From: Amphiscolops sp. MND2022
Taxonomy: Eukaryota
Reading direction: 5' to 3'
Assembly: GCA_964187785.1 (NCBI GenBank)
Contig: OZ076411.1
Coordinates: 9,982,001 to 10,046,000 of the forward strand
Length of the DNA stretch: 64,000 nt
A program made the translations under genes and the position numbers. Shown here one piece after another: positions 12,443 to 35,751 of this stretch (within the stretch, counting starts at the first letter, position 1; the number at the start of each line of letters is the position of its first letter). Below the pieces are notes generated by a model. The model saw only the letters and a program-made list of their open reading frames with translations. It had not been told where the DNA came from and searched no databases.

Positions 12443-13347
12443 TTTCAAGGAATGGATTTGATTCCAACAGTGAATTGATCAACAGTAACAAATCAAACAG
12501 TTTTGTATCGTAGCGTTTTCAATCAATGAATGAATGTCCCTTCTTATTACAAATTCCGCGTATATATAGTTTATACTGCATGACACGCAATATTTTGCGT
12601 GTCAGGAACTAAATTTAGGGTGATATCATTCTAAATATAGCCCCGATTTCATTATTAGGTCACTAGTCCTAAAAATAGACTGAGGGTTTTGACATTACGT
12701 CACACAAATGAATAGATATAAATAGCATCAAACAAACAGTGGGTATCTTTACATGTATTCAAATTCAGGTTAAAATCAACCTTTCATGCATTGGTAACAT
12801 CAATACTCAATGAAATTCTAAATATGACCATGCGTCAGCATGACTGCAATGATAGACTGGTACTTTACTCTGATTGGTCAACAAGTACTTGTGACCACAC
12901 GTCGGTTTGACTGCAGTAGAGTACTAGTTAATTAACTAAGAAAAGTGTCTTAAGGTACTCTTTAAACACCGTTTAACAGCACTTGAGTTACTTTGCTAAG
13001 TATTGCGTCGTTAACTAAGTGATGTACTTTAGGTCCAGATTAATTGCAAGTAATTTCATCAATGGGAAATTCTAAATAGTAACAAATCAATAATAGCAAT
13101 TGAATAAATGCACAGATTAAATGCTGTCAGTTTGACCTTTGGTCTAAATAGTAACATCGAAATTGCATGTTTAGCGTTAATAATTCGGTCATTACATGCA
13201 TGAAACAAATATTAAACTATCAAAATAAATGCTAAAGTTCGTTTCAGAATTTGTTCTAGATAGGTAGTACCCCGGGGGCTGGTGGCGTCTCATTACCTTC
13301 TGGCATCATTTGGTATAGGATGCCGTCACAAGCGGCAGCTTGCGACA
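11794..13347 (-). repeat. 5' LTR of element 1 (1,554 bp)
   Basis: Bounded by TG..CA and abuts the PBS. Its terminus TGTCGCAAGCTGCCGC matches the element 2 terminus TGTCGCAGGCTGCCGC. The partner LTR is not in the window. Confidence 0.8.
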
Positions 13348-15047
13348 GTAATTAATCATACGAATGATTTTCACCACAAAAAAAACGAGACAGTGGATTC
13401 AGACAGTCTGAATGCGTAAATCTATATACATAATCATTTTCTGTCCAAGAATTGATTTAAAAACAGCCTAAACATTGCAACTTTATTGCCTGAAGCAATT
13501 GACCTTTCCACACATGAACATTTTTACAATTTTTGTTTCTTAAAAATTAGGATTAGCCCGAGAAATTGGAGACAAAGCAATTTAGGGAACTCAAGTTGAT
13601 TATTTTTCTTCGGATTGCTACAGATTTCTTGGATTGACAACTCTCAGTAAATTGAAAAAGCGATTTAATTGACTTTTTACGGTCTGCTATTGAAATTGAT
13701 GATATGATTACCACGGAGATTCAAAACCAAATTTGTTTTTCTGATAACCTGATTTCAATGATGACGTTGCATAGACAAAGTCATGCAAAGTATATTCAGA
13801 AAAATCAGAAGTCGAAAAGAATTGCTGTCGAAAAAATTGGGCATTAGGTTTATCTAATCCAAAGGAATTCATGTTTTCAGTCGGCAAAATAATTGAACTA
13901 TGATTACTTAAGTATTGCTCTGTACTAACTTGAGTCATAAAGAATTTCTGTCAAGCTTTTTCATTTTTTGAAAATTTGCATCTTTTGGTTTCGTGAATTT
14001 TGCTTAGCGTGTTATCTAGTCGCATGTAGGCTGGCCATGGTGAAAAATGTACAGTCATTTATTCCGAGAATTCAGAAAAAAGATCCTGTTCCGAGACAAA
14101 CACGTCAAAATAGTTTTTTTTACGTTCGCTGTGACATGATGCTAAATACGTAACCGACCTAAAATGGCAATGTACCTGCCATTTATGTCAAATTCGAGTA
14201 CGGAGCTCTGTTCAAAAGCTTTGAAAATAGCGTTTCTTCTTTCAAACTGTAAATTAAAAATTTTCCAGACTGGGTAAACAATTTACTTTCTTGGAGGAAA
14301 CTTTCGTTTTTTTCTTGAAATTTATTTTTGATCTTTTTATTCAGAATTTTGTTAATTTTTAAAAACATGTTTAGAATTCATAAAATTTATAATTGAGTTT
14401 CGGTATATTGAGATGAGTGCCTTTTAAATTCCACGAGTAAAACAACTTGAATTTCAAGTTGATTTAGATTTCTCCAAGAGAAACAACGTTCGTTTTTTGT
14501 AATCATATTTGTGCATTACTTCTCTTTTTCTGTATTAAATCTCATCAATTGGTGAGACAAGAGATGGTATTTTCGACTTTGCAGTCTTAGACTTTTTTCT
14601 GTATAGGTCATCTGTCATTTTCAACTAGCAGAGTTCAACATAAATTGAAGAGAATTCATTATAACTTGTAATCTCTGGATTATTAGTAGAGCTTTGATTG
14701 AAAAACCCCTTGAGATTATCTTTATTACTTTCCTGAATTTTTGATAACGCTAGTCAGGAAATACAAGAATGATGATAGACTCTTGTTCATTAATGATTTG
14801 ATCTTAGGGATGATTTAATATTGGGAAAGCGTGATCAGATTGTTTGACAATGTCTTGTTAACAGCAAAACTTTAGCATCTCTAGAATAATTTCTCAGAGC
14901 TTGGGAAACTAATCCATCAACAAATAACGCTGGAGATAATTTGACAGTTAATAAATTAGAATGAAGACGCTTGTCCGAAAATGTTGGGCTCAGGAGTTGC
15001 TTCTATCATTCAATATTCAGTTAACAAAAGTTGTCAAAACAACCACT

Positions 15048-15530
15048 AACAAGCCGGGACCGGCCCAAGTTGGGGCCATATCTAAGGCTCAAAAATAGCA
15101 AAAGGACTTCAAAATGTCAAAGTATTGGTGAAATCGGAACCTTTTATGAAAGAAAAAAAGTTGGGAAAAAAAGTCTCACAATGCCGAAAAAAACTGAAAG
15201 AGGACTCTGGGATTTTTCAACATCCATTCTGTTGCAAAACTCCAAAAAGTTTGAAGGGGGACCCTTTGGTGGAAAAAAAATTGAAAAAAGTCACACAGTC
15301 CCGAAAAAATTTAAAGGGGGGACGCTTTGGTCTCGTCCGGTATTGTATGTTACGCGGGAAACCTTTTTGGTTCAGTTCCTTGGGCCAACAGGTACAATTT
15401 GGCGTCTTCTCAAAATTTTGTAGAACTTTTGGTACAACTATTTTGGTCACTTCAGGTGGTCTTAAAAAACACTGACGAAAAGTCATGGCTATAGTCGACT
15501 CTTTTTTTAAAAAAAGCGCCGACTAAAAAA
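15048..15530 (+). mobile_element. Short interspersed repeat, DINE-1/Helentron-HINE-like family (copy A)
   Basis: Begins AACAAG, internal AAAGGGGGACCCTTT-type subrepeats, ends CTATAGTC..AAGCGCCGACTAAAAA. At least 7 copies in the window. Confidence 0.6.
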
Positions 15531-16694
15531 TAGCCACTTGAGTTTTGCTCGAATTGCAAGCTGTTTTTTCAAAAAAGCTTCATTTGTGGCTTGTTATTTT
15601 TTGGTCTCATAATTTTTTTACTTTTTTGAAATTGATGAAATTAATGGGTTTAAATCAATAATTTTTTTGCTAAAAATTCTCTTTATTCGATCTTTACCGG
15701 CAGGAGTTGGTCGTGTTTAGATCACTTATTCTCAAAGAAGACCAATCGGACACATATTTTTGGGTACTTCATTCGTACTTTCATAGACCATCCAATAGTC
15801 TCTTTAAGTTTCGAAGACAGAGGCTGCATCAAACTTGATTCGTTCACCGAATTTCCTCCAAATGTGTTGGAAGTTTCGTATAACTTTTGAGAAACGATGA
15901 AAATTTCATTTGAATTAACTTTTTAGAAAATTTGAGTTTCCATCGTGATAGCGTCGGAGTTTTTTACATCAGATGAGGAAACGAACTTTTGGCCATACGG
16001 AGATCTTCAGCTCAAGCAACTATCGTGAGTCAGTGCCGCTTTTTGGCATTGTGAAGATGAGTTTGGCTCTGACGGGCAAAGTTTGAAGGGCCCACTTTAT
16101 TAGACGACAGTCTTCACACACTGGTACTAATGCATTTCAATCACTAGAATCACTCATCTGAGAACCATATGAGGCTTGACTTTTTTTCGAGTAACTGTTC
16201 TTGTGGGGAAAAGATTCGATTAAAATCCATTAAGGAATTTTATTTTCCTCTCAAGCAAAGTTCAAGTTTCAGCTTCCAGCGGTCGAAAAACGAGTTGACC
16301 ACTTGAGAACAAGACGCCCGTTGAGCACTGCGAAATTTCCACCCCAAACTAGTTCAGCGACATCACATTCTTCAAACTAAAAACTACGAACTGTCGAAAA
16401 ATGTCCAAAAAAACTTGAAAAGCTTCCCATCTTTTGGTTCATTTTCCCCCTTTTCATGAAAAAAATGTCTCCTTATACAAACGTATGCTAAGTAGCTAAT
16501 TGTAGACCAATTGCATGGAACAACCGAAAGTTGCCATGAAAGAACAAGTTTAAAAAATCTGATTTCCCTATTGAATAGTAGGGTTTTTGTCGCTGATAGT
16601 TTGAACTCTGTTGATACTTAAACCTACCAGAACATTCAAAAACTGTACAAACTTTGGTCGAAATTTGGGGTTTTTATAAACAATTAAAATCAAA

Positions 16695-17209
16695 TTTTTA
16701 GTCGGCGCTTTTCGTAGAAAAACGCGGACTATAGTAGTGACTTTTTTTAGGACCAACGGAGTGACAGATTTCATAAGCTTTATTAGCTGCGTCCACTATT
16801 TGCCACACTTAGCATAGAGCCACTTAGCATAGAGGTTAATTATCATAGTTTTTGATGTCTGCCAAGCAGAAGGACGTGGGTTCGAGTCTCACCCTTGACC
16901 AAGTTTTTTGTGCATGTAATTTTGGCTTTGTGAGACTTTTTTTCGCAATTTTTTAATGTCTCCAAAGGGTCCTCCCTTCAATTTTTTGCTATTTTGCAAC
17001 AGAATGGACGTTCAAAAAATCCCAAAGGGCCCCCCTTTTACAATTTTTGGCACTATGCGACTTACCGGAGACTTCAAAAAAAATTTCGAATTTTTTTCAA
17101 TTTTTATCTCCTGCGGGTGCTTTAGAAGAGAATACTTTGACACTTTGAAGTCCTTTTGCTATTTTTGAGCCTTAGATATGGAGCCGACTTGGGCCGTTCC
17201 CGGCTTGTT
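16695..17209 (-). mobile_element. Same short repeat family (copy B), with a tRNA-like A/B-box segment inside
   Basis: TTTTTAGTCGGCGCTTTT...GCCGACTTGGGCCGTTCCCGGCTTGTT termini. GGTTCGAGTC B-box near 16879. Confidence 0.6.
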
Positions 17210-17996
17210 TTAAAACACGTAGACACACGGAAACTTCCATCAGTATGCTCACCTTCTTTCTTCACTTTCTTAGCTGTCAAGTTTTTGATACCGATATCTA
17301 AATGAGTTATAAGTAGGACTCCAGAATTACGGAAATCAGGATACAAGTCTTATAAAAGTAGTTTTTATTCAGATCATTGTGTAGTTGTAAGAGCAATAGG
17401 CTGGTGTTGGACTGGAATCAATGTTCGAATCTCTCTCAAGACTCCACTGCTATGTTATGAAGTTGTTGCTACCTAGGTAATTGTGTGGTCATGAGAGATA
17501 ACGCACACAGCGGAGAAAACAAGACTGAAAAGAGCAACTGCAAGCTATCAGATCGTTGTGACCTAGAGCAAGTTACTTCGAAAGCGTAACTTCGAAGTCG
17601 ACCTTTTCTTGATTTCTTGGGTGCAAATATGGTGCCATAGCTTGTTTTGTTTAAGGATATTTCGTGGGTATGAGTTTTCACAAGGGTCAACAACAAAAGA
17701 TTTAGCAACTTAGCATACTCCTGAATAAAGAAATGTGATTTTTGATTTTTCAAAAAATTGTAAAAACGAACAGAAAAGTGCCAGTTGACACAACGTTTTT
17801 TTTAAATTTTTCATGCTAGATTCTTTTTCCCTTCGGAACAAAATTATATGGAGTTGCTAAAAGTTGCTTTAAAAGTTTTATGAAATTGATAAAAGTTTAA
17901 AAACAGTGTGCTTTGCTTATTCAAGAAACTTAGGTTTTTGAAATTTGAGCGGGCGCACAAAGGTGGTTTTTTTTCCCACAGACACGTATTGATGAT

Positions 17997-18591
17997 TTTT
18001 TTAATCGGCGCTTCATGACGTGAAACGCGACTATCATAGTGACTCGTCTTTTTTCAATTCTCACGAATTGACCAAATTAGTTCTCAAAAGTTATACAAAA
18101 TTTTATGGTCCCAAATTGGAGCATTTGGCCTCGCGAACTGAAACAAAAAGTTTTTCCTCTTCTTCGCGTATCATACTACCATAGTATCAACCCATAGTAT
18201 CATCCGGGCGAGACTAAAGGGTTTCCCTTTCAGTTTGTTTGGCATTGGGAGACTTTTTCAAAAAAATTTCCCAAAGGGTCCCCTTTTCAATTTCTTTGGA
18301 GTTTTGCGACAGAATAGATGTTGAAAAATCCCAAAGGGTCCCCCTTTCAGTTTTTTTGGCATTGTGAGCCTTTTTTGGATTTTCTTACCAAAGGGTTAGC
18401 AACAATGGATGTTAAAAAATGCAAAAGGATCTCCCTTTTAGCGCGCCAGTGGCACTCGTTTGGTTTTTTCGTGAGTTTGATACTCTTTTTGTGAGTTTGA
18501 TACTTTGAGTTTTTTGGCACTTTCATGCCCTTTTGCTGCTATTTTTGAGCCTTATATATATGGCGCCGACTTATACCGTTCCCGGCTTGTT
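17997..18591 (-). mobile_element. Same short repeat family (copy C)
   Basis: Ends GGCGCCGACTTATACCGTTCCCGGCTTGTT. AAAGGGTCCCCTTT subrepeats. Confidence 0.55.
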
Positions 18592-19374: not shown

Positions 19375-20058
19375 ACTTCCCATCGCAGCCCCATCGGTGG
19401 CTACCGCGGTGGTAATGACACATTTTGTGGTGGCCAGGGGTGGACCATCGGTGGTAGAAATATTTTCCCCACCGGTGGCCACTACAAAATGGGTTTTTTT
19501 TTCTGAAAAAACCACAGGAATAAGATCTAGAATTATCAAAAAACAACTGGAATTAGATCTAAAATTATCGAAAAACCACTGGAATAAGATGTAAAATCAC
19601 TGAAAAAACACCGGAATAAGATCTAAAATCACTGAAAAAGCACCGGAATAAGATCTAAAATCACTGAAAAAACACCGGAATAAGATCTGAAATCACTTAA
19701 ATGAAACCGGATAGAGGGGGGAATAAGATCTAAAGAAAAACTCACTGTATAACCAGTGGAAAACGTTTTTCGGACACGATCTGATTCTGCAAGCAGGGTT
19801 TACAGAAGCTTCAGAACCGTTCCTGAAAATTTTCCCATTCTGTTTGGTTTTGATGCGTCTAAATGTATTTCGTGTAGTGAATCTTCAGTTGCTAGAAATT
19901 TTGAACGAAATTTTCATTTCCGAAATTTTCGAATTTTCCACCGATGGTCCATCGGTGGACCACCGGTGGGAAAGCTTCCATGTAATCTAATTTTCCCTCA
20001 CCGGTGGCCACCGGTCGTCCACCGATGGCCAGTGGTGGGTTACCATGGGTTGTCAGTG
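19375..20058. repeat. MITE-like element with CCACCG(A/G)TGG-rich ends and an internal 32-bp tandem array (about 19505-19735)
   Basis: Palindromic CCACCGGTGG/CCATCGGTGG clusters at both ends. ACCGGAATAAGATCTAAAATCACTGAAAAAAC recurs at 19610, 19642 and 19674. Confidence 0.55.
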
Positions 20059-20295
20059 ATCGACCCTTTTTAAATTCAATTTATGAATAAGATTTATGGA
20101 GATTATTTTGGAAGAGGGAGCTTTGAGAGGATTCTTACAGGCTGTAAAGCATCATGTCAGTGAATTTCCGAGTAACAATGATTTTCCAATATAACCAATT
20201 TTTTGTTCTGAAAAGTTCCACGTTATGCAATTTAACTTGAATTTTCTTGAAGACTAAATTATGCAAGCAAGAAACGCACCAAATTTCGGTTTAGT

Positions 20296-21039
20296 ATCAT
20301 TTCACCCCACGTTCATTTCACCCCATATCATTTCACCCCATGTCATTTCACCCCACATTCATTTCACCCCAGGTTCATTTCACCCCAGGTTCATTTCACC
20401 CCAGGTTCATTTCACCCCAAATTCATTTCACCCCACGTTCATTTCACCCACATTTAAATTATCAAATGCGTCTCAGATTAATTACTAAAGCCACCCAATT
20501 TCAATCTTAGCGCTAATAGAAAAGCGTCTTGAATCTATTTACCAATTAGATAAGCAAACGATGCTTGCTATGTGAACCACAAATTCGAAACCGATTAGTT
20601 TCATTTATCGGAATTGTAATACTTCTGAAAAAGGCGCTGAAAAAAACATCCTTCTTCTGCCAATCAAAATTTACAATTATGGATGTTGCGAATCTTCAGC
20701 GAAAAATTTCTTATTCGGTTTTTCTACGGCAAAAAATCCTACAGGTCAGAAACTGACAATCAAATCAAAGCTGACTCAAAGACAGTAGGCATCAAAGTTT
20801 AATTGCTAACTGGTTAATTAAGGCGAGACGCTTTTGTATAATTACAATATGGTGTGAAGTGAAAATGAGGTGAAATGAACTTGGGGTGAAATGATTGTGG
20901 GGTGAAATGAATGTGGGGTGAAATGAATGTGGGGTGAAATGAATGTGGGGTGAAATGAATGTGGGGTGAAATGAACGTGGGGTGAAATGAATGTGGGGTG
21001 AAGTGATATGGGGTTAAATGATTTTGGGGTGAAATGAAC
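20296..21039. repeat. Foldback element whose inverted arms are 16-bp tandem arrays (ATTTCACCCCAnnTTC / GAAnnTGGGGTGAAAT)
   Basis: Array at 20296-20452 and its reverse complement at 20855-21039 around a roughly 400-bp spacer. Confidence 0.75.
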
Positions 21040-22620
21040 GCACACCCAAATTTCATTAAAAGGGTTTGCACGGCTGATCTTTAGCAAACAATGAACATGA
21101 ATTGTTTGAATTCGCTGCAACATTTTCCTTTATTGAATATTAAATGTTTTTTAAATAACGAATAATAGTATGACTGAATACTGATTACAAAATTTGCGCG
21201 GAACTTGAATTCATGACTTTTTTGTATCGGTCCTTTTTGAACCTTTGAAACTTGTAAACGTATTGTCCATGGAAAATTAAGCAAGTTTTTGTCGCAAAGG
21301 TATATTCTCTTTGAGACACAATTATGTTTTAGAGCAATGAGATTCCATTAAATGTTTTATTGAACTTCCCACTTCTGTTATCCAGACTTTTATTCGCACT
21401 TCTGTTTACCATTTTCTCAATATTTTGTCTCAATAAGTATAGTGTCCTCGATTACGATAAAAATGAAATTAGTTTCACTAAACATAAAAACAAAATTGTT
21501 TACGAGAAAGTTTTAGTGTTCAAAAGCATTCACAATTCAAAAGTTTCACTTGAACAAGTATGGAAATTGCATATGAAATTTCGTGAGTTCAATTATTTAA
21601 CCAAGTATTCGATTTTATTTTTATGTTATATGAAACTAATTTCATTTTCATGTTAAATGGGACTAATTTCGTTTTCATATTATTTGCTTTTATGTTATTT
21701 GGTACGTAATCGATAAAAACAGCGGAAAATTAAGGTGGCTCTTCAATTCATGTGATTTAGTTTGCATGGTGTTGTTAATGCACACTAAAAATAGATCAAC
21801 TATCTTCAATTTTTCCATTTTAAGCTACAGTGTCAGATATAGATTCGAAATTTGGAAACACACGTCAACTTCAATTATGCCTAAAATCATCTTAGTAAGA
21901 TGAATTATATGGATTGGCTGTGCTGTAAATATAAATCTGTAGCTATCTTTGGTTTTTACATTGGTGAGTGATTTCTCAAGCGGATAAATTATTGATATCC
22001 GGAAAATAAATATTTATATTTAGAAAACAAAATCACTTATTGCAGACAAACGTTGGAACACTTTAGATGACATTAGATAGTGATGATTTTTACTAAATGC
22101 TTTCGAGCAATTTCATTTTTTTTCGCTCCATGAAATCACAAATGATTGGAGAAGTATTGTGAAATCAAATCACTGAAAATCAAATCGGAAACGTTTTTAA
22201 AAATTTGCAAATGGGCCGATCTTTCGGTACCGTATAGCCTCGTAAAAACAGTGTGAACGAGCGTCATATGTGCATTTTAGATTCGCTCGAAGGAGAAATG
22301 ATTCTAAGCAAATGGAACAAAAAAACTGGACATTTCGGTGTAATGTTGGCGAAAAAAAAACAGTCGTTGCAGTGGTTGCGTCTGTTTTTTTTTCTTCCAA
22401 AAAACAGCTTTGGTTCGAAACTTTGGCGCAGCTATTTCAAGATACTGAAACTTCAGGATTTGAACTTTGCGCCCATGCAATCATTACCCGACAAAGCAAT
22501 GGGTTCATTGAGTGAACGCGTGACATCTTTCTATAAATCTGTCAGTTCGAGGTGTCTTGAAAAAAAATCACAACTATAGTCTGCTGTTTTGTATAAAATG
22601 GACTGAGAGATAAATGATTT

Positions 22621-23220
22621 TCAAAAAGTTTTTTTCAGGAAAAAATTAGGAGAAAACCTGTAAGGACTAACATCCGAATGTACTCTCAGGTCACAAGCGG
22701 ACCTTGAGTCCTTCTTTGTCAATCTTGTATTTGTGCTCTCCCATGCGCTTCTGACTCCATCCTCATTTAAGGACATACCCGGCTCAACACCATGTTGACC
22801 CAAAGGCAAATTTTCTACCATATTCTGTATTTCCGGAATAATTCTCTCACTTATAGCAGAACTAATGGCCCTTGTAATCTGTGTTTGCATTAAGTCCATC
22901 ATGGTCTCCATCTCGCGCGACATTCTAGCGTTTATTTCCCCAGATAGTGTATTGATAGACTCTATCAGTCTGCTTTCCCTAACTGGTTCATTTCTACTAT
23001 CGATGTCTCTAATCTCATTTTCTTGCGATGAATTTTCTCTGTTCGGAAAAGACCTATAGTCACGTCGTCCGTCTGGGACATTTATGAGAGCGTCCAAATC
23101 TCTTTCTATGGAATTTGAATTTCCATCACCTAACATTACGTCCATATTGCCGTAATCGGACAACATATCTAATTCCCTCGACTTTCTGGCCTTAGCCTTT
23201 TGTCTTCTTGTGGAAGGCAT
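22621..23220 (-). other. Gag N-terminal ORF duplicated in the 3' LTR, reading out into flanking DNA (199 aa)
   Basis: The first 187 codons are identical to gag 35754-37457. The final residues come from the host flank. Confidence 0.85.
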
Positions 23221-24380
23221 AAAATATTTCTACAGGAGGAAATATTTGAATTGTTCCTGTAATCGGGTAGAAAGAAAGCTTTACAAGGCAACTTGTATAA
23301 ATGCAAAGTTTGTGATTCAACTGTATCAAGTTTAGCAAAATTGTCCCTTGCGAAAGTTCGACCTGGGTATATATACCTAAGTGGGCATGATTCGCAATTT
23401 CATGGAGGTCATGTTACTAAAAATAACTTACAAGTTATAAATAGAACACGTCACTGCTAAAAATAGAATCATTGCGTCACTACGGACAGGTAGGGGCGGG
23501 TAGATCAAAGTGCCTTAGTAGGCCGAGTGACGCATGGAGTATAGCACTTACATGTAACGTAATATACATAAACACTTTTACATGTGAGAAGCATTCATGT
23601 AAGACACATATGGCGGGTAGCTGTAAGGGACTTATAGTTCCTTTCAAACATCGTAAAACAACATCACCTTTGGACAGGTACATGAAGGCCCGGTACGGCC
23701 AATGGCCGTCTGGATTTTCTAATTAAGTCTCATCAACATATAGGAAAGCAACACTGCATGTTAACACTACATGTGTTTGGTCATTACATGGGATGGGTTG
23801 TTCACGTCCTTCAATTGCTAATTGACTAAGACGTTAATTTCATGTGATAAGTAATACAGCACTTGAATACTCGTCGTGTCGACCGGCCGAGTTGGGCCTT
23901 CTTTATTGTACAGCACCAAGACAATTAGTACAAAAGATAGGGACGGCTATGTTGCATAGCCGCTTTCGTCCTATTTGCCATTGTTGAATACTATTCAACC
24001 ACAACATCAAAGCATAATTAGGCCGGCGAAGTCAGTTGGCCGTATTGGTCCATTCTAAATAGCTATTAGCACAGTTACATAATAAGTAAAGGAATGGTCG
24101 TTATAAACTGCGCTGTGATTGGCCAATTAGCCGTTGACGGCCTAGCTAGCCATACTGGACAGGCAAACATTTGAACACGTTTCCTCTTTGCCTGTCAGTA
24201 TAACTTGCTGTCAAATGTATTTTACATGAAGAATATTAATACAATACATCAATCAACATATTCAAAATAATACTAAATGTTTGAAAGTCTTATTTTATAA
24301 TGGGAGTGTCCCAGGCAGAGCAATTGGCCTTGTGTGGTCGATTGTATAGACGTTCCCATCGCAGGCGGCAGCCTGCGACA
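22659..24380 (-). repeat. 3' LTR of element 2
   Basis: Near-identical to 36896-38617. One substitution spotted by eye (T23711 vs C37948). Confidence 0.95.
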
Positions 24381-25131
24381 CTCCCCCTGGTATTAATAGG
24401 AACGTGCCCACCTGCATTCCCTCGATAAAAGCTCTTTTGCGCGCTTCTAGTTGATTAGCTGATTCTCCCAATGTGGCCGTCTTACGCAAATAATCCGTAA
24501 CTGCTTCGTTCTGAATTTGCACGGTAGATTTCCCGCATATCACGCAGTCCGAGTAATTCGCCATTGGATTGTGTGTTTCAATTCCCATTCCTTGAAAATG
24601 GTTTGTAACTGTGTCCAAGGATTGCTGGGTGATATCGCCTTGACGGTCCGCTGAAATGGAGTCGTAAATTGGCCCTTTCTCTTCGGGTGGGGGCGACATG
24701 GGAGTATCTGCTATTGGAATAATTTCTCTACACAGTTTGATTGGATGATTATTGCGCACTCGGTCGTCTCGCCGTATTGGGCCGTTTCCTCTTCCCAGTG
24801 AGAAGAAAGATTGGTCAAGTGTAGGTCTTATTGCGCTGCTCGTCCCAAAGGTCCCGTATCTTGGCAAGTTATACTGGGGAGCTTCATTTCTAGTTTTCAG
24901 TGTAGAGGATGGACCAGGTACTAGGATGGGTGATGACAATTCCATCTCGACGCACTGGGCCATCATCATGATCTCGTCGTCTATTTCTTCGTCTTCCGAT
25001 GACAGTTGAAGATCTAGTACTGAAGTCATACTCAGATCACATATTTCCTCCTCCTCGTCGCTGGACAGGCAAATTATATCTATGCCTTCGGGCGCCGCGC
25101 CTTGGAAGTCGTTAGGAAATCGCTGGGCCAT
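24295..25131 (-). CDS. ORF3 of element 2: 278-aa acidic sense-strand accessory protein with tandem SIM-like motifs, crossing the PPT into U3
   Basis: Open ATG-to-TAA frame. Its C-terminal peptide SQAAACDG..Y....P..PG.LP is also encoded at the LTR start of element 1 (13256-13345) and of the solo LTR near 63350-63435. Confidence 0.75.
   Translation of the reverse strand: MAQRFPNDFQGAAPEGIDIICLSSDEEEEICDLSMTSVLDLQLSSEDEEIDDEIMMMAQCVEMELSSPILVPGPSSTLKTRNEAPQYNLPRYGTFGTSSAIRPTLDQSFFSLGRGNGPIRRDDRVRNNHPIKLCREIIPIADTPMSPPPEEKGPIYDSISADRQGDITQQSLDTVTNHFQGMGIETHNPMANYSDCVICGKSTVQIQNEAVTDYLRKTATLGESANQLEARKRAFIEGMQVGTFLLIPGGVSQAAACDGNVYTIDHTRPIALPGTLPL
24381..24388 (-). promoter_or_regulatory. Polypurine tract AGGGGGAG abutting the 3' LTR
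   Basis: Purine run directly 5' of the TG of the 3' LTR on the minus strand. Confidence 0.75.
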
Positions 25132-26244
25132 GAATCTATCTTTTATTATCTTTTTTGCAATTTTGAATGCGGCAGAATGAATTTGATTTAATCAGAGTAG
25201 GGTAACTGTTCCGTTTGAAAGCTAAGAGACAAATGGCGATTTTCATATCCCAATTTCTCGATAGTTCCTGCCTCACAATTTCCCGGTCTTTCATTTCCCG
25301 CGCCATGTTTCATTGGCGAAACTTTCCAAGATGTTCTTTGATATAAACCGCCTTCCGCTTTGTTGACTGACTATCAACTTCAGCTTGCCTAAGTCGGCAA
25401 AGGACCTTCAAGGACTTCGTCTAGTGTTTATCTCCACTTGATATCCACTTGAGAATTTCAAGAGAGGTTGATGAAGTTTTAAGGCCACGCGCGGCGCATC
25501 GCCGCGACAGCCAATGGGAATTGCCCACCCAGTCCGCTTTTCAATATGGCGGAATTAGAATAATAATCCAAATAAGGAAATAATAAAATAACTAAAAATA
25601 ATGCAATAACTAAGATAATAAAATAATGAAAATGCATGTTTCGAAATATAACTAATGTGGATTTCTCTGGCAGGTTCCATCCACGAAATAATCTTCATAA
25701 TTGTGAAAACATTTGACATCAAATCCAGTTTGCCACGAACTCCAAATTCTTCACTACAATCAGTTTGTTTTCTTCTGAATTATTTATTGTTACATTTCAT
25801 ATTCGTATTTATCCTTCATCTATTTAGTATAGTTGTTAGTATTTTGTGTTTTATCCTTCCTCCATTACCCTCAGAATTTCTGTGATTCGTCGTCTTGTCT
25901 CCCCATCTTGGATTGCTGTTGCTGTCCAATCGCCGCACACGTCCAAATCTTCCTCTTTGCTATCCGGATTCACCTATTTTGGATAGTTGGATCATCAGGT
26001 TTTCTACCCTTGGTTACCACACAATTTCAACTTAACTGGAACCAACACAGCGTTCTCACCTAGTTTCCAATCAGCCAACAACTACAGGTAAGCTATCTGG
26101 TCTTTTATTTTTCTTTTTGAACGGAAATAAGCTTGATCAGGGCTTTTCCTCTCGTTCATGTACTTCCTGTCCCCTTTTCGTCAAGACGATTTTGACGTTT
26201 CATTTTATTTCTTTTCACTTCCGGAAGGTTTTACTGCGGCTCAC

Positions 26245-29200
26245 ATGGACTCATATTCAGGAAGTTGTCCGCAACAATTCATCCCTTTTCGTTTAGGTAT
26301 GACTTCAGAGAAGAGTTTGCCAGAATCCACTACCGTCCCAGTTGTTGGAAATGAAGAAACTGTTACTCCTGAGATCGCTGAGTCGCTAGTCCCAAGCAGG
26401 CCTTCTCCCCAGGTATCCGAAGAGAGTAGAACCACTGAGGAAAGCGTAACTGCGTTTATTGAAAGAACTGTTGACACTCTGTCTCAGTCTGAGTCGGACA
26501 TCATTAGCCCTTTACCGAGTCAGCAGGGCGTTACTGCCCGGATAGTTACTATCATTCCTGCCTTTTTGAAGGCTTCAGTATCTGATCCCATTGCTGTGAG
26601 AGTTGATTTGCCGAACATCGAAGCTGAGGACAGCAGTATCAAGGAGGCCGAATCCTCGGTAGAGGCGCAAGGCCTATTTGGTGACACTACGGACGCAGAA
26701 GATCTGATGGACAGCTCTGGCGTTGCTGTATACCCACCCGTGGTCCCGAGTGTCACTTTAGACCCAACTTCCTTCCCTGAACTAGAAGGAGAGTTTCACG
26801 AAGACCCAGGACATAGCGATTCTGAGCAAGAACAGTATCGCAGCAAGTTGGAAGGAACTGACAGACAGCTTTCGGCCAAGGGCAAATTGATTATAAAAAA
26901 GTACTTCAGGGAAACTCGTCCCATTGAGCTACCTAGAGACCATCCTGTTATTGCCCTCACTGCAGATGAAATGCATGCTGTTCTAAGGACTGTCTCTGAT
27001 GAATCCGTGCTTTCATCTTATCATATGATGAAGTCCTTGTTGCTCCACGCCACACGGGGCGCTCCCCAAGACAGGAAAAGGCCTATGCCCAAGCGATGTG
27101 CCACCCCTGCTCGTCCATTCACCGACAGTTCAGGGGATGAGAGTAGCTACGAGGGACATACGTCCGACGGGGACACCAGTGGAGCCTTCAATACAGACGA
27201 AGATCCATACCAGTTGGGGTCCATCTCCGGCACTGATTACTTGAGTGAGACTGATCCTTTGGCGCTCACTCCAATTGCGCGAACAACCAACGTACGGGGC
27301 GCAACCCGAGCAGAGACTGCAACTCCAACATCCGGGAGTGGGTACAGTAGTACCGATTATCAACCTCTTTCTACAATTGGCCGACTGCCTGAACAGGAGA
27401 CCCAGACCAGGAGCCCCCCCAGGAAGAGACGCAGGTTGCTTAGTAAGCCAGGAAAAGTAATGAAAGACGCCTATTTTAAAGGCATCCAGTGGACCCGTAC
27501 TTTCGTGTCTGGACCCGTCGACCCTGTCCACAACAAGTTCAAGTTTTATTGCATGTTATGCAAAACCAATGTCTCCATCTTCTCGAAAGGTGCCCGAGGG
27601 ATCCTGAGGCACCACAAGACCGAGGGACATCTCCGAAAGGACCAGAAGTGGAGATACACCCATCTCCGAGAAACCAATGAAGTCACTGGAGTCACAACAT
27701 ATCAAGTCAGAGGGAAGGACGGTTATGTCCTTACCCCGATCGAGTTGGAACGAGAGAAGCCCAAATTCATAGATGTACCTTTAGTTGAGACAGGCGATCG
27801 CTTCCCATTTTATGACGATTATATGGCTAGTATTGGGGGAATTACCAACCCTGACGATCTGCGGACCAGTACCCTCATCTCATTGATTGGGACTTTTGTA
27901 CCGAAGGATGGCAACATCTCCTTGCTACAAAGCTTGTGGACCCGAGTGGGAGTATTCACCAACCACCAGGCTTTGTTTTCTTCCTTCGATTGGGGCTCTG
28001 TTACCCTTACAGTAAGTAGGTTTTCACTCGTGGCCTTACCAGTAAGGCCTAGCAAGTTCCCTGCCCAAGGCACCCTTCGCATATTCGTATTTTGTTTTAG
28101 AATATTTTCCATCACGTTTTCATGAGAGGACTGGCTGACATCTCTACCCACATCATGGCAGCTGAGATGTACTCTATCGAGTTCACGACGGAGGGTGTTC
28201 ACCGCTACATGTCCGTCCGTTTCTGGAGGGACGACTCACTCGTCCGAATTTCACTACATCGGCACAATCAGACTGACCCTTACCCGGATTGTTATTTAGC
28301 GGCTATTTCGTCCCTGCTGTCATTTGTGTCCACAAAGCCAGATCTCGTTAGCATTTCTTGGTGTTCTTCCATGATCTTCAAAACCTTGGAAACATGCGGC
28401 CTGTTCAATCATGGGATCCAGTACCCATTCCGTTTCGAGATTTTTTCTCTTCCTGAGTTGATGCATCCCGACGCATTACAGACTAGCTACATCTTTGGCC
28501 GGATCGATATCTTCTCTCAACTGAAGTTCCTGGTTGTGTTTCTCCGAGGCGGACTCAGTCAAACCTGGGCCTTAAAGAGCCCTGAACTTTGTAAGGTAAT
28601 CTATTTCTTGAGCATACTTCTTTTCCCTGCGCATAGTTACTTTGACTTGTTGTTGACAAACCCTTCGAGCTATTTTCATAATGATGCGGAAGCCCCTTTT
28701 TATCTGATTGTTTTCATAGGCCATAGCAGCGTGTGATGTGGAGCTGAAGAAGATCCCCGCCATCTGTACTGAACTAGTCAAAAACTGGACGGCCATCAAG
28801 GACTATCTTACCAGTATAGCCCCAACCCAGAAAATGCAAGGAGTCAAGAATAAGGTATTTATTTGGCATTTTCCATAACTTGGTGTCACTTGTCCCGTCT
28901 CATTGTGTATTTGGGTGTTGTTTTCTTATGCGTAAGGTTTTCTTTTCAGCCGCAAAGTCTGGAATGGCAGATTATCTTAGACGACTTTTTCACCATCAAA
29001 CTTGAGCTTCTATCCTTGCTAGTCCGCGATTGTTAGTTGTTTTCTTTGCATCTACCTGGAGTAATAGTATAATTGACTTGTTGGCTCATATGCCGATCGC
29101 GGTCATAACCATGAGTACTTTTGTAGCAACTTGGGGTGGTTGGTAGCTCCTGGTAATTTGTGGTTGAGTCTGGGTTTGTTTAGATACCAAGAGTTTCGAG

Positions 29201-30339
29201 CGCAGTCTTTCTGGACGACGAGATGCGACCCTCTTCATCTATGGCCAGTACTGCAGGTTCATCCGCCGGTTGTGTCACCGCGCCATTCTGCCTAAATGCA
29301 TCCCAAACGATGTTGACTGGACTGGTCTACTGCAATTGTGTCCCGACGATCTGAGACAATTGTCAATTCGAGATTTCCTGAATCGCCTCAAATTAACGTG
29401 CGACCTCGATCTGGCTTGTCAGGCAAAGTTGAAGAGATCCCGGGGGAAAACCCCGTGCCTGCCAACCAAGATGAGCTGGTCACCAAAGAAAGAGAAACCT
29501 TTGGGGCGGAGGCCCGAGCCTATATAGTCACTCTGCTAGGATCCTTGCTTCAGGACATCCACTTCACTGCGAACATTGTCCACGGCATGGGTAGTTTCGA
29601 TCCTCATGTGTTGCTGACATTGCCCCTTGAGCAGGTGACATTCTGTTTCAACGCCTTGTATGACAGCTTTCGGCTTCGCGGCTGGGTGGACGAATCTTCC
29701 CGAGGTGACTGCCGGGATGAATACCTTGAGTTCGTGGATTATTTCCGCAAGGCTTATCCCTCCATTAAGTCTTCCCCCGGAACCATTGCCGACATGTTAG
29801 ATTTCCTTGTTCCGATCCCTGCATTTCGAAATCGAGCTCGGCTGTTCCATTTATTCCGTCTGTGTTGCCTTTGCATGACCGAGGAACATCAGAATCTTCC
29901 TGCTATTAAGTTCCAGGACGTCGACACTTCCAGTCCTCGTTGTCGCCTTTCTGCTGTGATATTGCCTGCTCAGTCCTATTTGGCAAATTGCCCTAGTGCT
30001 GTTTCTGTTTGCACTACTGAGTCCGCTCTAGTCCAGTACAAAGAATTGGAGGGGCAGTTTAGTTCTGGACAGCTAGCGGGAGATCCTTGGGCTCATGTTG
30101 ACGTCTTTGGGCGGACGAATTTCCAGAAGACTCTCACCACCGCCTTCAATAATTTAAAGGTGGCTCCTGTGGTTGGCGTTAGCACAGTGTCGCAGTCGTC
30201 CTCCGTCTCCACTTCTGCCGGGCGCAAGATAAATTGGGCTGCTGGGCAAGCTCACAAATTGGCTTATTTTGGAGATCTTCCGGCTAGTGAGGTTTCAAAG
30301 ACTATTCAGGAGTTACGGGAAGGAAGTTCTAAAGACTAA
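26245..30339 (+). CDS. Antisense 5-exon accessory gene of element 2: join(26245..28011,28101..28595,28720..28854,28950..29031,29184..30339), with an apparent 1-nt frameshift near 29425
   Basis: Starts MDSYSGS like the element 1 copy. GT-AG introns at homologous codons and phases (0,0,0,1). CMLC...HHKTEGH finger. Exon 5 homology switches frame at ACQAK/VEEIPG. Confidence 0.75.
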
Positions 30340-30525: not shown

Positions 30526-33500
30526 CTAGTATCTGTATTCATCAGTATAGTTGGGGGTGGGGTTGGGTCGAAGATTATATTTCCCTGCTCTAGGGCTAGA
30601 TACTTCATTTCCTTTTTCATTCGATATTCCGGGCACGGTAATATCATCCCCCTCGTTAGGAGAGTTTTTCTCGCCTTCTAATTCATTTGTGACGTCATTC
30701 ACGTTCTTTTCTGAACTAGGTGGTGTATTACCACCATTGTGGCTATTTCGGCTAGTGGCCGTTCTCGGCCTTTCTATTTCGCTGCTTTGTTCGTCTCGCG
30801 CAGCATTCTCGCTAACGTCATGTTCGTCATGCATTATAGGTGCGTCTCGGCTAGCAGCCGTACTCGGTCCCGCTTCGTTTTCATTCTTTTTGGTTCGTTC
30901 ATTCAGTTCGGTGACGTCATTTGCGTCTCGTGTGATTGTGCTGTCTCGGCTGGTGGCCGTCCCCGGCCTTACCGCGTTGTCATCAGCGTTGTCATAAATG
31001 ACGTAATCACTCGTCGTGACATCAGCATCGCTGTCTGGTGTTCGTAATTCTTCGTTCGTTTTGTCGTCTCGTCTCCGCTCGAAGACGTTGTAATCAAAGT
31101 CTGCTTCCCATGAGATGGTGTATAAATCGTCTTGCGGTATGATTATTTCATCATCTGGTTGCAATTTCTCTTTGGCATATTTGTCCTCTAAGGGCGTGTT
31201 TGGAACAAATTTTTTCAGGCGAATTCGGTGTAATATCTGCGTTTTATTCGTATTTAACCGGCGGACAATGTAATTGTCGTTAGGCAATACCTTTTCAATT
31301 CGATAAGGACCGATCCAGCGATATTCCCTAAAAGGAATTTTCGATCCTTGATTATCTGCTTTGGGTTGCAGAATAAAGCAAAAATCTTGTTCACTAAGGG
31401 GAGCTGCCTTGGCCTTCCGGTCATAGTATTCCTTGTATTTCAAGTATGACTGCATGATATTTTGCTTCGTTTGGTCAATGAGAATTTGTGTTCTCTGTTG
31501 TAATTCTTCCGCAAATTCCGTAGTGGGCAAGAAATCTTTATTAGGATTATTTCCAAGTTTATGATCTAGGACGTTGTAGGGAATCCGTCCGTGGAAGACC
31601 TTACTTGGCTCACAACCAATACTGGAGTGGTAGGTGGTATTGTAATTGAGTACTGCCAGTGGTAGGTATTTATGCCATTGCCGGCGGTATTCCCCTGAGG
31701 CCATCTTCAAATTAGTCTTTAAAGATGCGTGTGTCCTCTCTAGTTTGCCGATTGTTTGCGGGTGTTTAGTCGTTGCACATCTTAGTGTAATTCCGAGAAT
31801 TTCAGTTATTTCAGCGATAATTTTTGACGTGAAGGCAGTTCCTTTGTCAGTGATAATTGTTGTCGGCAGATATGTATGTTTTGTCATGATGTCAATCAAA
31901 ACTTTTGCCGTGTTTGAGGCGGTAGCTTCTACTAACGGGTAAGCGAACAGGTATCTTGAGAATACATCTATCGCGGTCATCACGGTTTGGTAGCCTCCAC
32001 TTGTTGGTAAATTTGGTAATAAATCAATTTGCATTGCATCTTCTGGTCCAAGGTCCCATTCGGGCAAGTTAAGCAATTCAGGGGTGATCGTGTTATTTGG
32101 AACACGTTTGTCCCTTGCACAAGTTTCACATCCCTCTACCCATTTTTTAACATGTTTTGCTATTCCTGGGTAGTAATATTTCTGACGAATTTCCTGTAAC
32201 ATTTTCGATATACCGGGATGCTTGTGTGCTGTGCCGTGTAAGGCTTGTAACAATTCTGTCAAGAGGTGTTTTGGTAAGAGAACTTGGTGATACTTGACTT
32301 GTCCAGTTTCATCATAGTATTGTCGTGTGACTATTTCGTCTTTAAGTACTATTCGGTCCAAGTTATTAAGGTAGTGTTTGTATCGTATATCTTGTTGGAG
32401 TAGTTCTTCAGAATAGTCTTCGTTCTGAATTTTGGCTTTGAGTTGGCGCAGTATAGGATCTTTGGATTGTTCAAGTAAAATTTGGTTCGTTCTGCGCATT
32501 TTTTGGGTGAAATTTGTAATCTCATCTACTATGTTTTCAGATATTGCGTCAATTTGAATAACGCCTTCTCGGTCGATTGGGTTGGTTAGGCTTTGTTTTT
32601 TACGCTCCCAAATTTGAGCTTCTGTCTCATCATCTTGCTCCGTGAAGAAAACCTGTTCCTCTTCAGCAACGCCTGCCGATTGGACATTGACCTCGATGGG
32701 CTTAGTCTCTATGTCTTCGCGGATTTTAAGGACTAGTTTCTCTCTGGGGTCCATTTCCATGCGAGATAAGTAGTCGGCGGCTGTGTTGTTTTTCCCTGGT
32801 ATATGTGCTATGACAAAATTGAATTGTATTACATAGTCACATGCATTCCAGAGTGTTGGAGGGATTATCTTCGTCTGAAAGAATCTCGTGACCGATTTGT
32901 TGTCCGTTAGGATAGTGATCGGTTTAGAGGCTCCCCAGAAAATATGTCCAAATTCTTTAAATGCGTAGTAAATCGCTAAGAATTCCTTGGCATATATGGA
33001 CATTTTGAGTTGCGATGGCGTAAAAGTTTTTGAACCATATGCAATTGGAGCGTACGATTTTTTGACAGATGAATATTTCTGGTTTGGGTCGTCCTCGGTA
33101 AGTATGGCGTAGCCGGCCGCTGTGAAACTAGCGTCGGTCATCAGGACCAGTTGCTTGTTTGGCAAAGGCTGCTTCAGGGCCAATTGGCTACATTTGTCGA
33201 GGTCCCGATTGATTTCGTTGAACTGTTGTATTAGTTCTGTAGTCACCAGGACCTTTTCGTCCTTTTTGAGAAGTTGGAAAAACGGGGCTAATTTTTCAGA
33301 TAATCTTGGGATGTAGTTCCTGTAATAATTGAGGAAACCAAGGTATCTTTGCAGAGCTTTTTTAGATTTGGGGAATTTGGTTTTTTCGAGGAAGTTTGTT
33401 ATTCGCTCCTTTTGTGGTTTGACACCTTCCGGAGTGATTGTTCTTCCCAAGAAATTGATTTCCGTTGCCCCGAAGTGGCATTTGTGCATTGTCAGTTTAA

Positions 33501-35751
33501 GGCCAGCATGCCTAATGCACTCAAAGGTTGCTTTCAAATTTTTTATGAGGTGATCCGCATCATTGGCGGCTATGCCAATGTCGTCGACATATTGGGCGCA
33601 TTGATCAGCTTTGATAACTTTATCGAGATATTCCCTCATGAAACTTGAAAATGCTGATAATGCCCTGCTAAGACCCTGAGCAAGTCGTCTATACGCAAAG
33701 GTGCGGCTTGCAAAGTTGAACGCAAGCATCTCAACGGACCTTTGGTCCGCCATTGGTAGGCAGTGATAAGCCTGTGAGCAATCAAGTTTACAGAATAGCT
33801 TCTTTCCTGCCATATGTTGCGCAGCGTCCGTTAGGGTACTAACCGGATGATTGTTGTTTATGTAGTCATCCGAAATGAGGTTATTAATTTTCCTCAGGTC
33901 GACTAGTAGTCTTAGCTTCCCATTCGGCTTTTTCTGTGCGAATATGGGACTGGCATATTTTGAAAATGGCAGTGTAGTTATTATGCCATATTTGTGTAGG
34001 AGGGCCAGTTCAACAAGTATGTCTTCTTTTAAAATGACTGGAGTTGGAAGACTTTGGCTGTAAGCGGGCGAATCGTCCTTAGGGGTCAATTTGACCGTGA
34101 ATTCGTCATTCATTCCGATGTCAAATCTGTGTCGTGCGAATATGTCATGGTATTCGACTAAAAGCGATTCGATCTTTTTGATTTCATGTTGTTGCAGCAT
34201 GGAGTCTTTCCAGTCGAAATTGCCAAGAAATTTGCGGCGTGACTCATCATCATTCTGTGGATTTAATTGTTCAGCTTCTTGGAGGTTTCGTAATTCTCGA
34301 AGGATTCGTCGTTGGATGGGAGTATGGGAATCTTCGTCCCCTGGGTTTTCTGGCGTAGGGAACCAGTACTGTTCATATTGGTCATTGTTCCGATTGGCCT
34401 TGAGTAGACTACTGACATAATAGATCGCATCCTCTTCGTTTTCATTGAGGAGATGCCATGTGGACACCGGATCAATTGGTTTGACGTGTTTCATCTGTTC
34501 CGGTGTTAGTACGGAAAAGTTTGCTATGTGTAGTCCCCTTTTAAGCTTGTACGGTTGGTCTGTGAAATTGTTGATATGAAGGTTGACATTTCCATTAGTC
34601 AATGTGACTATTGCGGCACAGAATGTGATGTCGCCTTCTTCATGGAGGAGATCACTGGGTTGCAACACCCCTGTGACCGTGTTTTCATTGTAGATTTGGG
34701 ATTTGATTTCTACTAAGGTACGGTCATTGGGTGGTATTGTGATATCGTCTGGATTAAGTATTGGTTCTAGTACGTTGGAGTATTTATGGTCAGCTGTTTT
34801 AAGTTGCATCGAGAAGTATGGGAAATTGAGTATGCCTTGTCGCATGTCCAGTACTGTATGATTCCTCTGGAGGAACTTTAGTCCTATGATAGGGCCAGTC
34901 AGTTTTTCCATTACTATGAATATTTCATGGAATTCAATATCTCCGACTTCGAACTTGAGTTCAACAGTGCTCTTTGGGGTTTCCAATTGTCCATTTGCGA
35001 CCATAATTTGAAATGTCGGGGCAGGTCCCTCTTTGACTATGGATTGGGGCGCCAATAGGCGTATTTTCCTGAGGTCTGCTTCCGGAATTGCGCTGGAGTG
35101 AGCTCCAGTGTCTATGAGGCCGTCTATAGTTAGTTCCCCAAAATCCATCGGGAAATATAGCATCCGTTTTTTGTATTTGAGTCCGAGGTTTGTGGATAAA
35201 GGTATGTACGCTGGTTCTCCCTCTTTAGTTACAAGGACATGTATAAAAGCTGTCTCGTCGAGGAGGCCAGGTGTGGCCTGTGTCTCTTCTGCATGTGGCT
35301 GATCTTTGATTGCATCAAAATTTGGTTGCCACGGTTCGATAAGTGCCCGGGACAGTCTGGTGTCCACAATGTCAGGGTCATCCTCATCGTCTGTTGGCGG
35401 GTAGTCATCATTCCGAAATTGTAAATTGTGTTTATCGTATAAATCATCATCCCAGTACGGGTCTTTGCCATACTCGGGGTCATAGTATTGGGGGTTGTAG
35501 TCTTCGACAGTCTGTAAGGGTCGGAATTGGGTTTCTGAGTCTTTAGTAAGGTTATTACGTCGATATAGGTATGGGTGGTCACTGTGAATAATATATTGAG
35601 TTTGAGTACAGGCTTCCACCATCTGCTGCTGCCAGACAGTCGATGGGGTCCCTGTGATGTCCTTTTGTGATTGCTTGAAGACAATATTAGCTGGGTCTGA
35701 TATGACGTATTGTCGTATCGACATTCGGTCACATATTTGGAGTCGTGGCAA
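30526..35751 (-). CDS. pol: Pol polyprotein of element 2 (PR, dUTPase-like spacer, RT, RNase H, IN)
   Basis: LIDTGA, QYVDD, TDAS, HHCC and DDE motifs in a 1741-codon open frame. Confidence 0.96.
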   Translation of the reverse strand: MPRLQICDRMSIRQYVISDPANIVFKQSQKDITGTPSTVWQQQMVEACTQTQYIIHSDHPYLYRRNNLTKDSETQFRPLQTVEDYNPQYYDPEYGKDPYWDDDLYDKHNLQFRNDDYPPTDDEDDPDIVDTRLSRALIEPWQPNFDAIKDQPHAEETQATPGLLDETAFIHVLVTKEGEPAYIPLSTNLGLKYKKRMLYFPMDFGELTIDGLIDTGAHSSAIPEADLRKIRLLAPQSIVKEGPAPTFQIMVANGQLETPKSTVELKFEVGDIEFHEIFIVMEKLTGPIIGLKFLQRNHTVLDMRQGILNFPYFSMQLKTADHKYSNVLEPILNPDDITIPPNDRTLVEIKSQIYNENTVTGVLQPSDLLHEEGDITFCAAIVTLTNGNVNLHINNFTDQPYKLKRGLHIANFSVLTPEQMKHVKPIDPVSTWHLLNENEEDAIYYVSSLLKANRNNDQYEQYWFPTPENPGDEDSHTPIQRRILRELRNLQEAEQLNPQNDDESRRKFLGNFDWKDSMLQQHEIKKIESLLVEYHDIFARHRFDIGMNDEFTVKLTPKDDSPAYSQSLPTPVILKEDILVELALLHKYGIITTLPFSKYASPIFAQKKPNGKLRLLVDLRKINNLISDDYINNNHPVSTLTDAAQHMAGKKLFCKLDCSQAYHCLPMADQRSVEMLAFNFASRTFAYRRLAQGLSRALSAFSSFMREYLDKVIKADQCAQYVDDIGIAANDADHLIKNLKATFECIRHAGLKLTMHKCHFGATEINFLGRTITPEGVKPQKERITNFLEKTKFPKSKKALQRYLGFLNYYRNYIPRLSEKLAPFFQLLKKDEKVLVTTELIQQFNEINRDLDKCSQLALKQPLPNKQLVLMTDASFTAAGYAILTEDDPNQKYSSVKKSYAPIAYGSKTFTPSQLKMSIYAKEFLAIYYAFKEFGHIFWGASKPITILTDNKSVTRFFQTKIIPPTLWNACDYVIQFNFVIAHIPGKNNTAADYLSRMEMDPREKLVLKIREDIETKPIEVNVQSAGVAEEEQVFFTEQDDETEAQIWERKKQSLTNPIDREGVIQIDAISENIVDEITNFTQKMRRTNQILLEQSKDPILRQLKAKIQNEDYSEELLQQDIRYKHYLNNLDRIVLKDEIVTRQYYDETGQVKYHQVLLPKHLLTELLQALHGTAHKHPGISKMLQEIRQKYYYPGIAKHVKKWVEGCETCARDKRVPNNTITPELLNLPEWDLGPEDAMQIDLLPNLPTSGGYQTVMTAIDVFSRYLFAYPLVEATASNTAKVLIDIMTKHTYLPTTIITDKGTAFTSKIIAEITEILGITLRCATTKHPQTIGKLERTHASLKTNLKMASGEYRRQWHKYLPLAVLNYNTTYHSSIGCEPSKVFHGRIPYNVLDHKLGNNPNKDFLPTTEFAEELQQRTQILIDQTKQNIMQSYLKYKEYYDRKAKAAPLSEQDFCFILQPKADNQGSKIPFREYRWIGPYRIEKVLPNDNYIVRRLNTNKTQILHRIRLKKFVPNTPLEDKYAKEKLQPDDEIIIPQDDLYTISWEADFDYNVFERRRDDKTNEELRTPDSDADVTTSDYVIYDNADDNAVRPGTATSRDSTITRDANDVTELNERTKKNENEAGPSTAASRDAPIMHDEHDVSENAARDEQSSEIERPRTATSRNSHNGGNTPPSSEKNVNDVTNELEGEKNSPNEGDDITVPGISNEKGNEVSSPRAGKYNLRPNPTPNYTDEYRY

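Follow-up and report, generated by a model that had tools for sequence, protein, structure and literature searches.

A retrotransposon accessory gene family with one conserved SUMO-interaction-like motif, paired with a spliced antisense gene in a Ty3/Gypsy element of Amphiscolops

We analysed a window of 64,000 nt (contig OZ076411.1 of Amphiscolops sp. MND2022; all positions are those of the window), whose minus strand harbours between 22659 and 38617 the LTR retrotransposon that is home to ORF3, the accessory gene studied here. By its sequence organisation, this element is a Ty3/Gypsy LTR retrotransposon, i.e., we find LTRs with TG...CA ends, a target duplication, a primer-binding site (PBS, TGGTGACAGGAGC), a polypurine tract (PPT), a pol gene with the domain order PR-RT-RH-IN and a Ty3-like RT. 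Its parts are as follows.

22659-24380, minus strand: 3' LTR of 1722 bp with TG...CA ends; the target duplication GGTTT lies outside, at 22654-22658
24295-25131, minus strand: ORF3, accessory gene of 278 aa; the last 28 codons and the stop are inside the 3' LTR
24381-24390, minus strand: polypurine tract CCAGGGGGAG, read as ORF3 codons
25132-26244, no strand assigned: spacer between the divergent accessory genes, with a small GC/CpG peak and a CCAAT box near 25430-25550
26245-30339, plus strand: antisense five-exon gene with a BED-like zinc finger; this copy shifts frame in the last exon
26245-28011, 28101-28595, 28720-28854, 28950-29031 and 29184-30339, plus strand: exons of the antisense gene
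30526-35766, minus strand: pol, with protease, dUTPase-like, RT, RNase H and integrase domains (Pfam)
35754-37457, minus strand: gag, starting 562 nt inside the 5' LTR and reading through the primer-binding site
36896-38617, minus strand: 5' LTR of 1722 bp, with the target duplication at 38618-38622

The two 1722-bp LTRs show a single mismatch between them and have 5-bp GGTTT flanks; given this one-base difference and the flanking duplication, the insertion is very recent. For pol, the best PDB match is Ty3 Gag-Pol (E 1e-47). A dUTPase-like domain (pol residues 339-419) is located between protease and RT in both Gypsy elements of the window, with Pfam E-values of 0.003 in the ORF3 element and 5e-6 in the second one (described below). 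In both elements, gag starts inside the LTR (36896-37457 and 11794-12442) and the PBS is translated as MVTGA; an orphan copy of the gag start is found in the 3' LTR (ORF 22621-23220). Since gag reads through the PBS and ORF3 through the PPT, both priming signals are protein-coding.

The first-pass annotation had assigned ORF3 a nef-like position, in place of env. ORF3 is indeed not env-like, i.e., it shows neither the signal peptide nor the transmembrane segment of such a protein, as had been described: its N-terminus is not hydrophobic and its highest Kyte-Doolittle mean over 19 residues is 1.19. What lies in the env slot between pol and ORF3, however, is a spliced antisense gene, which occupies on the plus strand 4.1 kb of the 5.4-kb gap. 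Its four GT-AG introns are found at the same sites in both elements and measure 89, 124, 95 and 152 nt in the ORF3 element and 95, 71, 70 and 72 nt in the second one (splice junctions were placed by eye, automatic exon chaining having given nothing). The antisense gene is open for 1310 aa in the second element; in the ORF3 element a stop follows after 940 aa and the remaining last-exon frame is still 30% identical to the second element's copy. We obtained 92 homologues of this gene. For its zinc finger, Atlas provides the lead BED/zf-C2H2_12 (score 0.89, all ten of the ten best family matches from one clan) while Pfam is silent, i.e., applied to exons 1-3 and 5 it reports neither TRP28/Transposase_28 nor BED/zf-C2H2_12. 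The profile of the antisense gene gave 0 matches against PDB. Directly before the zinc finger, the antisense protein carries a conserved SPPRKRRR (encoded within 26245-28011), which is likely a nuclear localisation signal.

ORF3 and the antisense gene are arranged head to head with their starts 1.1 kb apart, and the GC/CpG peak together with the CCAAT box of the spacer is a candidate internal promoter. Upstream of ORF3, three lineages have in common an ATTGGCT and, 69-91 nt further on, a GGATAT[CT]; in 182 of 1000 shuffles, a common 7-mer with the GC content of ATTGGCT arises as well, such that this observation is not significant and serves as a hint only. Between the contigs listed for ORF3 relatives (139) and for the antisense gene (90), 7 could be matched by length, one of them as short as 12 kb, which is a rough sign that both genes travel together.

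The second Gypsy element (998-13347) is of the same build, its pol and gag DNA being 72-74% identical to that of the ORF3 element. It comprises a 5' LTR of 1554 bp (11794-13347), gag, pol and an intact five-exon antisense gene, and its 3' end lies beyond the left edge of the window. Since its 5' LTR opens with a related 30-codon ORF3 tail, the second element likely has its own ORF3 beyond that edge. At about 61200-63480 we observe a decayed LTR relative, likely an old solo LTR, in three pieces of 79-85% identity with traces of the ORF3 tail and the gag start. The window also contains a single-frame ORF for a rhodopsin-family 7TM receptor (45486-46775, plus strand; Pfam, E 1e-6), probably a host gene, as well as a 16-bp tandem array in two inverted blocks plus a 32-bp tandem array (20280-21050 and 19506-19711). 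Dispersed repeats built of GGGTCCCC/GGGGGACCC-type units, which occur in either orientation (15039-18400, 40627-43518, 55003-55129) form a family resembling a non-autonomous DNA element and include two perfect-spaced hairpins (42377-42596, 42728-42861). Finally, local duplications at 55800-59393 and 60572-62700 show a spacing of about 3.0 kb and 1.06 kb and 86-94% identity.

ORF3 itself had been described as a 278-aa frame that crosses the PPT, ends 86 nt inside the LTR and contains the motifs IDIICLSSDEEEE, ICDLS, VLDLQLSSEDEE and CVIC. We can confirm this for both the frame (24295-25131, LTR edge at 24380) and the motifs, all of which are present in the translation. No plus-strand ATG ORF of at least 80 aa overlaps the gene. 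One search returned 86 ORF3 homologues of 30-95% identity, all of them unnamed, and no name was found among the family members examined in 7 clusters either. The family counts 305 representatives at E<=0.001 (150 among the matches listed), and two metagenome loci (L001, L002) provide relatives together with their DNA at 38% and 34% identity. In three comparisons, identity at the first/second/third codon positions of residues 1-247 amounts to 0.50/0.56/0.32, 0.47/0.50/0.30 and 0.43/0.53/0.27. That is, third positions are the least conserved, which indicates coding selection. On this codon and family evidence, ORF3 is a real gene from a large unnamed family under coding selection.

The trivial explanation, to which we assign hardly any probability, would be a frame that is open by chance across PPT and LTR end. 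It finds some support in the best-conserved block of the protein, residues 248-259, which is encoded by the PPT and the first LTR bases and keeps its third positions at 0.67-0.83 compared to about 0.3 elsewhere. But copies of 25-40% identity still agree in reading frame, in the region of the start, in the position of the stop and in the motifs, and third codon positions are near saturation outside the block, such that this reading is already largely refuted. The C-terminal peptide that had been noted as conserved is thus conserved, but partly because PPT and LTR end fix the DNA. Changes within the block in the LTR of the second element are synonymous, and DNA and protein constraints may both act on these residues.

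Database comparisons leave the family unnamed. Pfam finds no family in ORF3 and, among 102 family members, only a stray DUF6094 in two of them. The ORF3 profile has one match among PDB sequences (E 0.96), Atlas yields no usable match (recognition 1259, where known families usually reach 2300) and no ORF3 relative was found among viral contigs. One contig of the viral collection (L003, 212-538, minus strand) carries an intron-containing SUMO gene; it is probably fungal rather than viral DNA, since that gene is fungal and has an intron. The literature, covered by titles and abstract starts (with Repbase/Dfam and most subscription papers outside this scope), gave no account of the element or of a SIM-bearing retrotransposon accessory protein; the element could be named already in supplementary repeat libraries or Repbase.

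The sequence features of the ORF3 protein are listed from the N-terminus onwards, where SIM denotes a SUMO-interacting motif.

25054-25077, minus strand: SIM1, IICLSSDE, residues 19-26; hydrophobic core, two Ser and acidic run, predicted phospho-SIM
25030-25044, minus strand: ICDLS, residues 30-34; not conserved as SIM
24985-25020, minus strand: VLDLQLSSEDEE, residues 38-49; possible second SIM, in close relatives only
24937-24978, minus strand: conserved predicted amphipathic helix, residues 52-65 (AlphaFold2, block pLDDT 82 and 74)
24691-24747, minus strand: HPIxxC...[ST]PxSP block, residues 129-147; proline-directed phospho-site pair
24406-24600, minus strand: H178, CxxCG[KR] (residues 196-201) and helical hairpin (residues 203-242); folded core, predicted to bind metal

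According to PMC12751080, a phospho-SIM has a core of four V/I/L residues with Ser and acidic residues behind it and is a target of CK2, and SIM1 (IICL-SSDEEEE) agrees with this definition. This also holds for the disorder of such motifs: residues 1-50 show a block pLDDT of 48-52 and no secondary structure, where low pLDDT is a proxy only, such that the N-terminus around SIM1 is likely disordered according to the model.

To quantify conservation, 298 retrieved proteins were reduced to 125 of near full length and finally to 33 (including the ORF3 query) under 70% identity, with fragments and near copies left out. We searched their first 80 residues (residues 49-130 for the long row P0281) for a hydrophobic core followed by three S/T/D/E. 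SIM1 is found by this pattern in 24 of the 33 relatives, down to 25% identity, compared to 1.6 expected from composition shuffles, a contrast that is optimistic given that the pattern was devised after viewing the alignment. The nine rows without SIM1 comprise three that begin downstream of the motif, two decayed single rows and four members of one clade (support 99/98 in a tree based on residues 100-278 only), which kept the Ser-acidic run and lost the hydrophobic core. SIM1 is retained in all deep lineages except one. A reverse SIM as replacement in the core-less clade was discarded; it matched 2/4 members and falls on helix 52-65, i.e., it is a hint only. Beyond ORF3, neither element has a match to the pattern in gag or pol (0 matches), and 14 matches were counted in the 51,296 residues of the 92 antisense-gene homologues (0.022 per 80 residues). 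In three copies at 34-38% identity, the SIM1 serines are encoded by TCC AGC, TCA TCG and TCA AGC, and both Ser codon families are in use across distant copies. Since the codons differ between distant copies, the constraint acts on the protein. We thus see, as far as alignment and codon usage can tell, one SIM-like motif that is under protein-level selection.

The other candidates differ in this respect. Position I30 of ICDLS is I/V/L in 7/33 relatives and Met in 16/33. The column block of VLDL, from the third motif, is filled in 15/33 rows (D40 in 13, L39 in 3) and forms a clean core only in relatives above about 55% identity. Two pattern matches within the first 80 residues occur in 1/33 relatives, although here one has to consider that the pattern excludes VLDLQL by design, which a looser one would accept. 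The conservation to be expected in other copies is thus found for SIM1 and missing for ICDLS and VLDL, and the 'tandem' character that had been proposed for the motifs does not hold. While ORF3 of this copy may carry two SIMs, the family trait, judged from the alignment, is one.

Further conservation is observed downstream. [ST]PxSP is present in 33/33 relatives and is preceded by HPIxxC (H129 in 24/33, C134 in 30/33). Within the set of Cys/His residues, H178 is kept in 30/33, C196 in 33/33, C199 in 32/33 and C257 in 33/33 relatives; some of them likely bind metal. The AlphaFold2 model of full-length ORF3 (mean pLDDT 62.5, pTM 0.33) is confident only for helix 52-65 and hairpin 203-242, with a pLDDT of 89-97 across residues 201-240; the C-terminal part alone reaches a mean pLDDT of 66.8 and a pTM of 0.38. 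In fold searches with these models, all matches fall on the helical hairpin of ORF3, both for the full model with its pTM of 0.33 (best Z 5.7, rmsd 3.1, 48 aligned) and for residues 112-278 with 0.38 (best Z 4.4, rmsd 3.0, 46 aligned), and Foldseek reports nothing at E<=0.001. A likeness to RNA polymerase subunit N/RPB10 was seen in weak rows (E 1.6 and 5.0) and is not taken as real. Reading SPPPE as an Fbw7-type degron was dropped as well, the +4 residue being E in only 9/33 relatives. The net charge is -18 for residues 1-65 and -3 for residues 110-278. ORF3 has no [VILMF]KxE/D SUMO acceptor site, which 6/33 relatives do have, and we saw no clear nuclear localisation signal in it.

Our preferred reading, which we hold tentatively, is that ORF3 is an adaptor that uses its one predicted phospho-SIM to promote transcription of its own element or to lift local silencing. 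Expression of ORF3 would start at an internal promoter that also serves the divergently oriented antisense gene, and the protein would act in the nucleus. There, CK2 is predicted to phosphorylate its single SIM, which might then dock on SUMO-tagged chromatin proteins. Element specificity could be supplied either by the Cys/His core of ORF3 or by the antisense BED-like protein. The presumed outcome is a promoted transcription of the own element or a lifted local silencing, where analogy to known systems suggests activation rather than targeting or export. The single conserved phospho-SIM-like motif supports a contact to SUMO, and an anti-silencing role is plausible. SUMO is required for piRNA-guided silencing in flies, as summarised in 10.1101/533091, and known transposon anti-silencers are described to act narrowly (PMC6719617). 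On the other hand, a SIM is a loosely defined motif, and of the three predicted in HCMV IE2 one is reported not to bind SUMO. The adaptor also has against it the missing SUMO acceptor consensus, the lack of a basic surface and of a clear nuclear signal as well as the core-less clade of four. Since the C-terminal part is not basic, direct DNA binding by ORF3 is unsupported. A rather unlikely extension is a counter-silencing cassette of two genes, in which the antisense BED finger would recognise element DNA while the phospho-SIM of ORF3 displaces or rewires SUMO-dependent repressors.

The original suggestion of a SUMO-pathway decoy or antagonist survives in so far as one conserved SIM supports SUMO contact, while its RNF4-like binding of poly-SUMO by tandem motifs finds no support. 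We consider it improbable that ORF3 acts as a decoy with several SIMs, sequestering poly-SUMO and relaxing host silencing in general. The VLDL-type second candidate with its acidic run, found in this copy and in relatives above about 55% identity, would suit such a decoy, as would the need for SUMO in fly silencing (10.1101/533091). Two N-terminal matches are nevertheless restricted to 1/33 relatives, ICDLS is unconserved, neither RING nor any other Pfam family accompanies the motifs (the 102 members included, apart from the stray DUF6094) and transposons are argued to harm themselves by broad anti-silencing (PMC6719617). A lone SIM is described to bind weakly, a property better suited to an adaptor than to a sponge; together with the invariant proline-directed phospho-site and the Cys/His domain, the lone motif makes the adaptor fit better than a bulk decoy.

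The acidic N-terminus might also be of an ordinary kind that serves activation or docking and includes a CK2 site, with its conserved motif binding a partner other than SUMO. The charge of residues 1-65, the conserved amphipathic helix that follows SIM1 and the survival of the Ser-acidic run in the clade without core are in line with this idea; we still regard it as unlikely, given that the fixed order core-Ser-Ser-Asp-Glu persists down to 25% identity and is close to the SIM definition. Somewhat less probable to us is a cofactor of integration or trafficking, i.e., ORF3 would link the pre-integration complex to chromatin rich in SUMO or, like CERV in the case of Cer1, assist in exporting unspliced RNA. 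According to PMC10309623, CERV is a nuclear protein that an invertebrate LTR element encodes as an accessory and that depends on the phosphorylation of one serine, and ORF3 has an invariant Ser-Pro site. However, no sequence likeness to CERV emerged from the database searches, a basic RNA-binding stretch does not stand out in ORF3, and the introns are on the antisense strand, such that they need not be present as introns in the genomic RNA.

In sum, accessory proteins of the ORF3 type form a new and well-conserved family whose one SIM is credible, and they are encoded within an unusual two-gene cassette. A recently active family of animal retrotransposons has retained, at identities of 25-95%, a gene whose phospho-SIM is of textbook shape, and one may ask whether retrotransposons turn the SUMO step of silencing to their own use or act against it. 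Function aside, the layout is undescribed and resembles that of complex retroviruses in an env-less Gypsy element, with two accessory genes of which one is spliced and antisense. If the cassette reading were true, an animal retrotransposon would encode a protein anti-silencer whose target is the SUMO step in the silencing of transposons.

An RNF4-type reader combines several conserved tandem SIMs with a RING, whereas ORF3 has no conserved tandem SIMs, no RING according to Pfam and only one CxxC pair. IE2 of HCMV uses a CK2 phospho-SIM for transactivation (as outlined in 10.1101/655282) and shares with ORF3 an N-terminal SIM with two adjacent CK2-type serines. The sequences of both are unrelated, however, and an IE2-like role as cis-E3 is unsupported for ORF3, since it lacks a consensus SUMO acceptor site. 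VANC of VANDAL transposons is an accessory factor encoded by the transposon, for which a role against the silencing of its own family has been proposed (PMC6719617), but it belongs to plant DNA transposons and acts on DNA methylation via a DNA motif, with no SUMO link in that account. CERV from Cer1 of C. elegans and ORF3 are both novel accessory proteins of invertebrate LTR elements; phosphoserine dependence is described for CERV, which differs in being translated from spliced mRNA and in exporting the genomic RNA, and a SIM is absent from its abstract (PMC10309623). The plant elements Retand, Grande and RIRE2 share with the ORF3 element a long region between pol and LTR with an antisense gene, which is described there as probably encoding a DNA-binding nuclear protein under its own promoter. 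The antisense gene described here, by contrast, is interrupted by four conserved introns, encodes a BED-like finger, shows no TRP28/Transposase_28 match in exons 1-3 and 5 and has as its partner a sense gene that crosses the PPT.

The genes nef and bet extend into U3. Like ORF3, Tas/Bet of foamy viruses and Nef of HIV are small non-env genes at the 3' end; ORF3 differs by its place in a Gypsy retrotransposon without env, and neither Pfam nor PDB-chain sequences reveal homology to Nef or Tas. Foamy virus Tas is expressed from an internal promoter and activates the LTR, i.e., a regulatory gene at the 3' end starts the cycle (as summarised in PMC7390438), and an internal promoter is likely for ORF3, too. 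By this analogy, ORF3 may work like the regulatory gene of a complex retrovirus.
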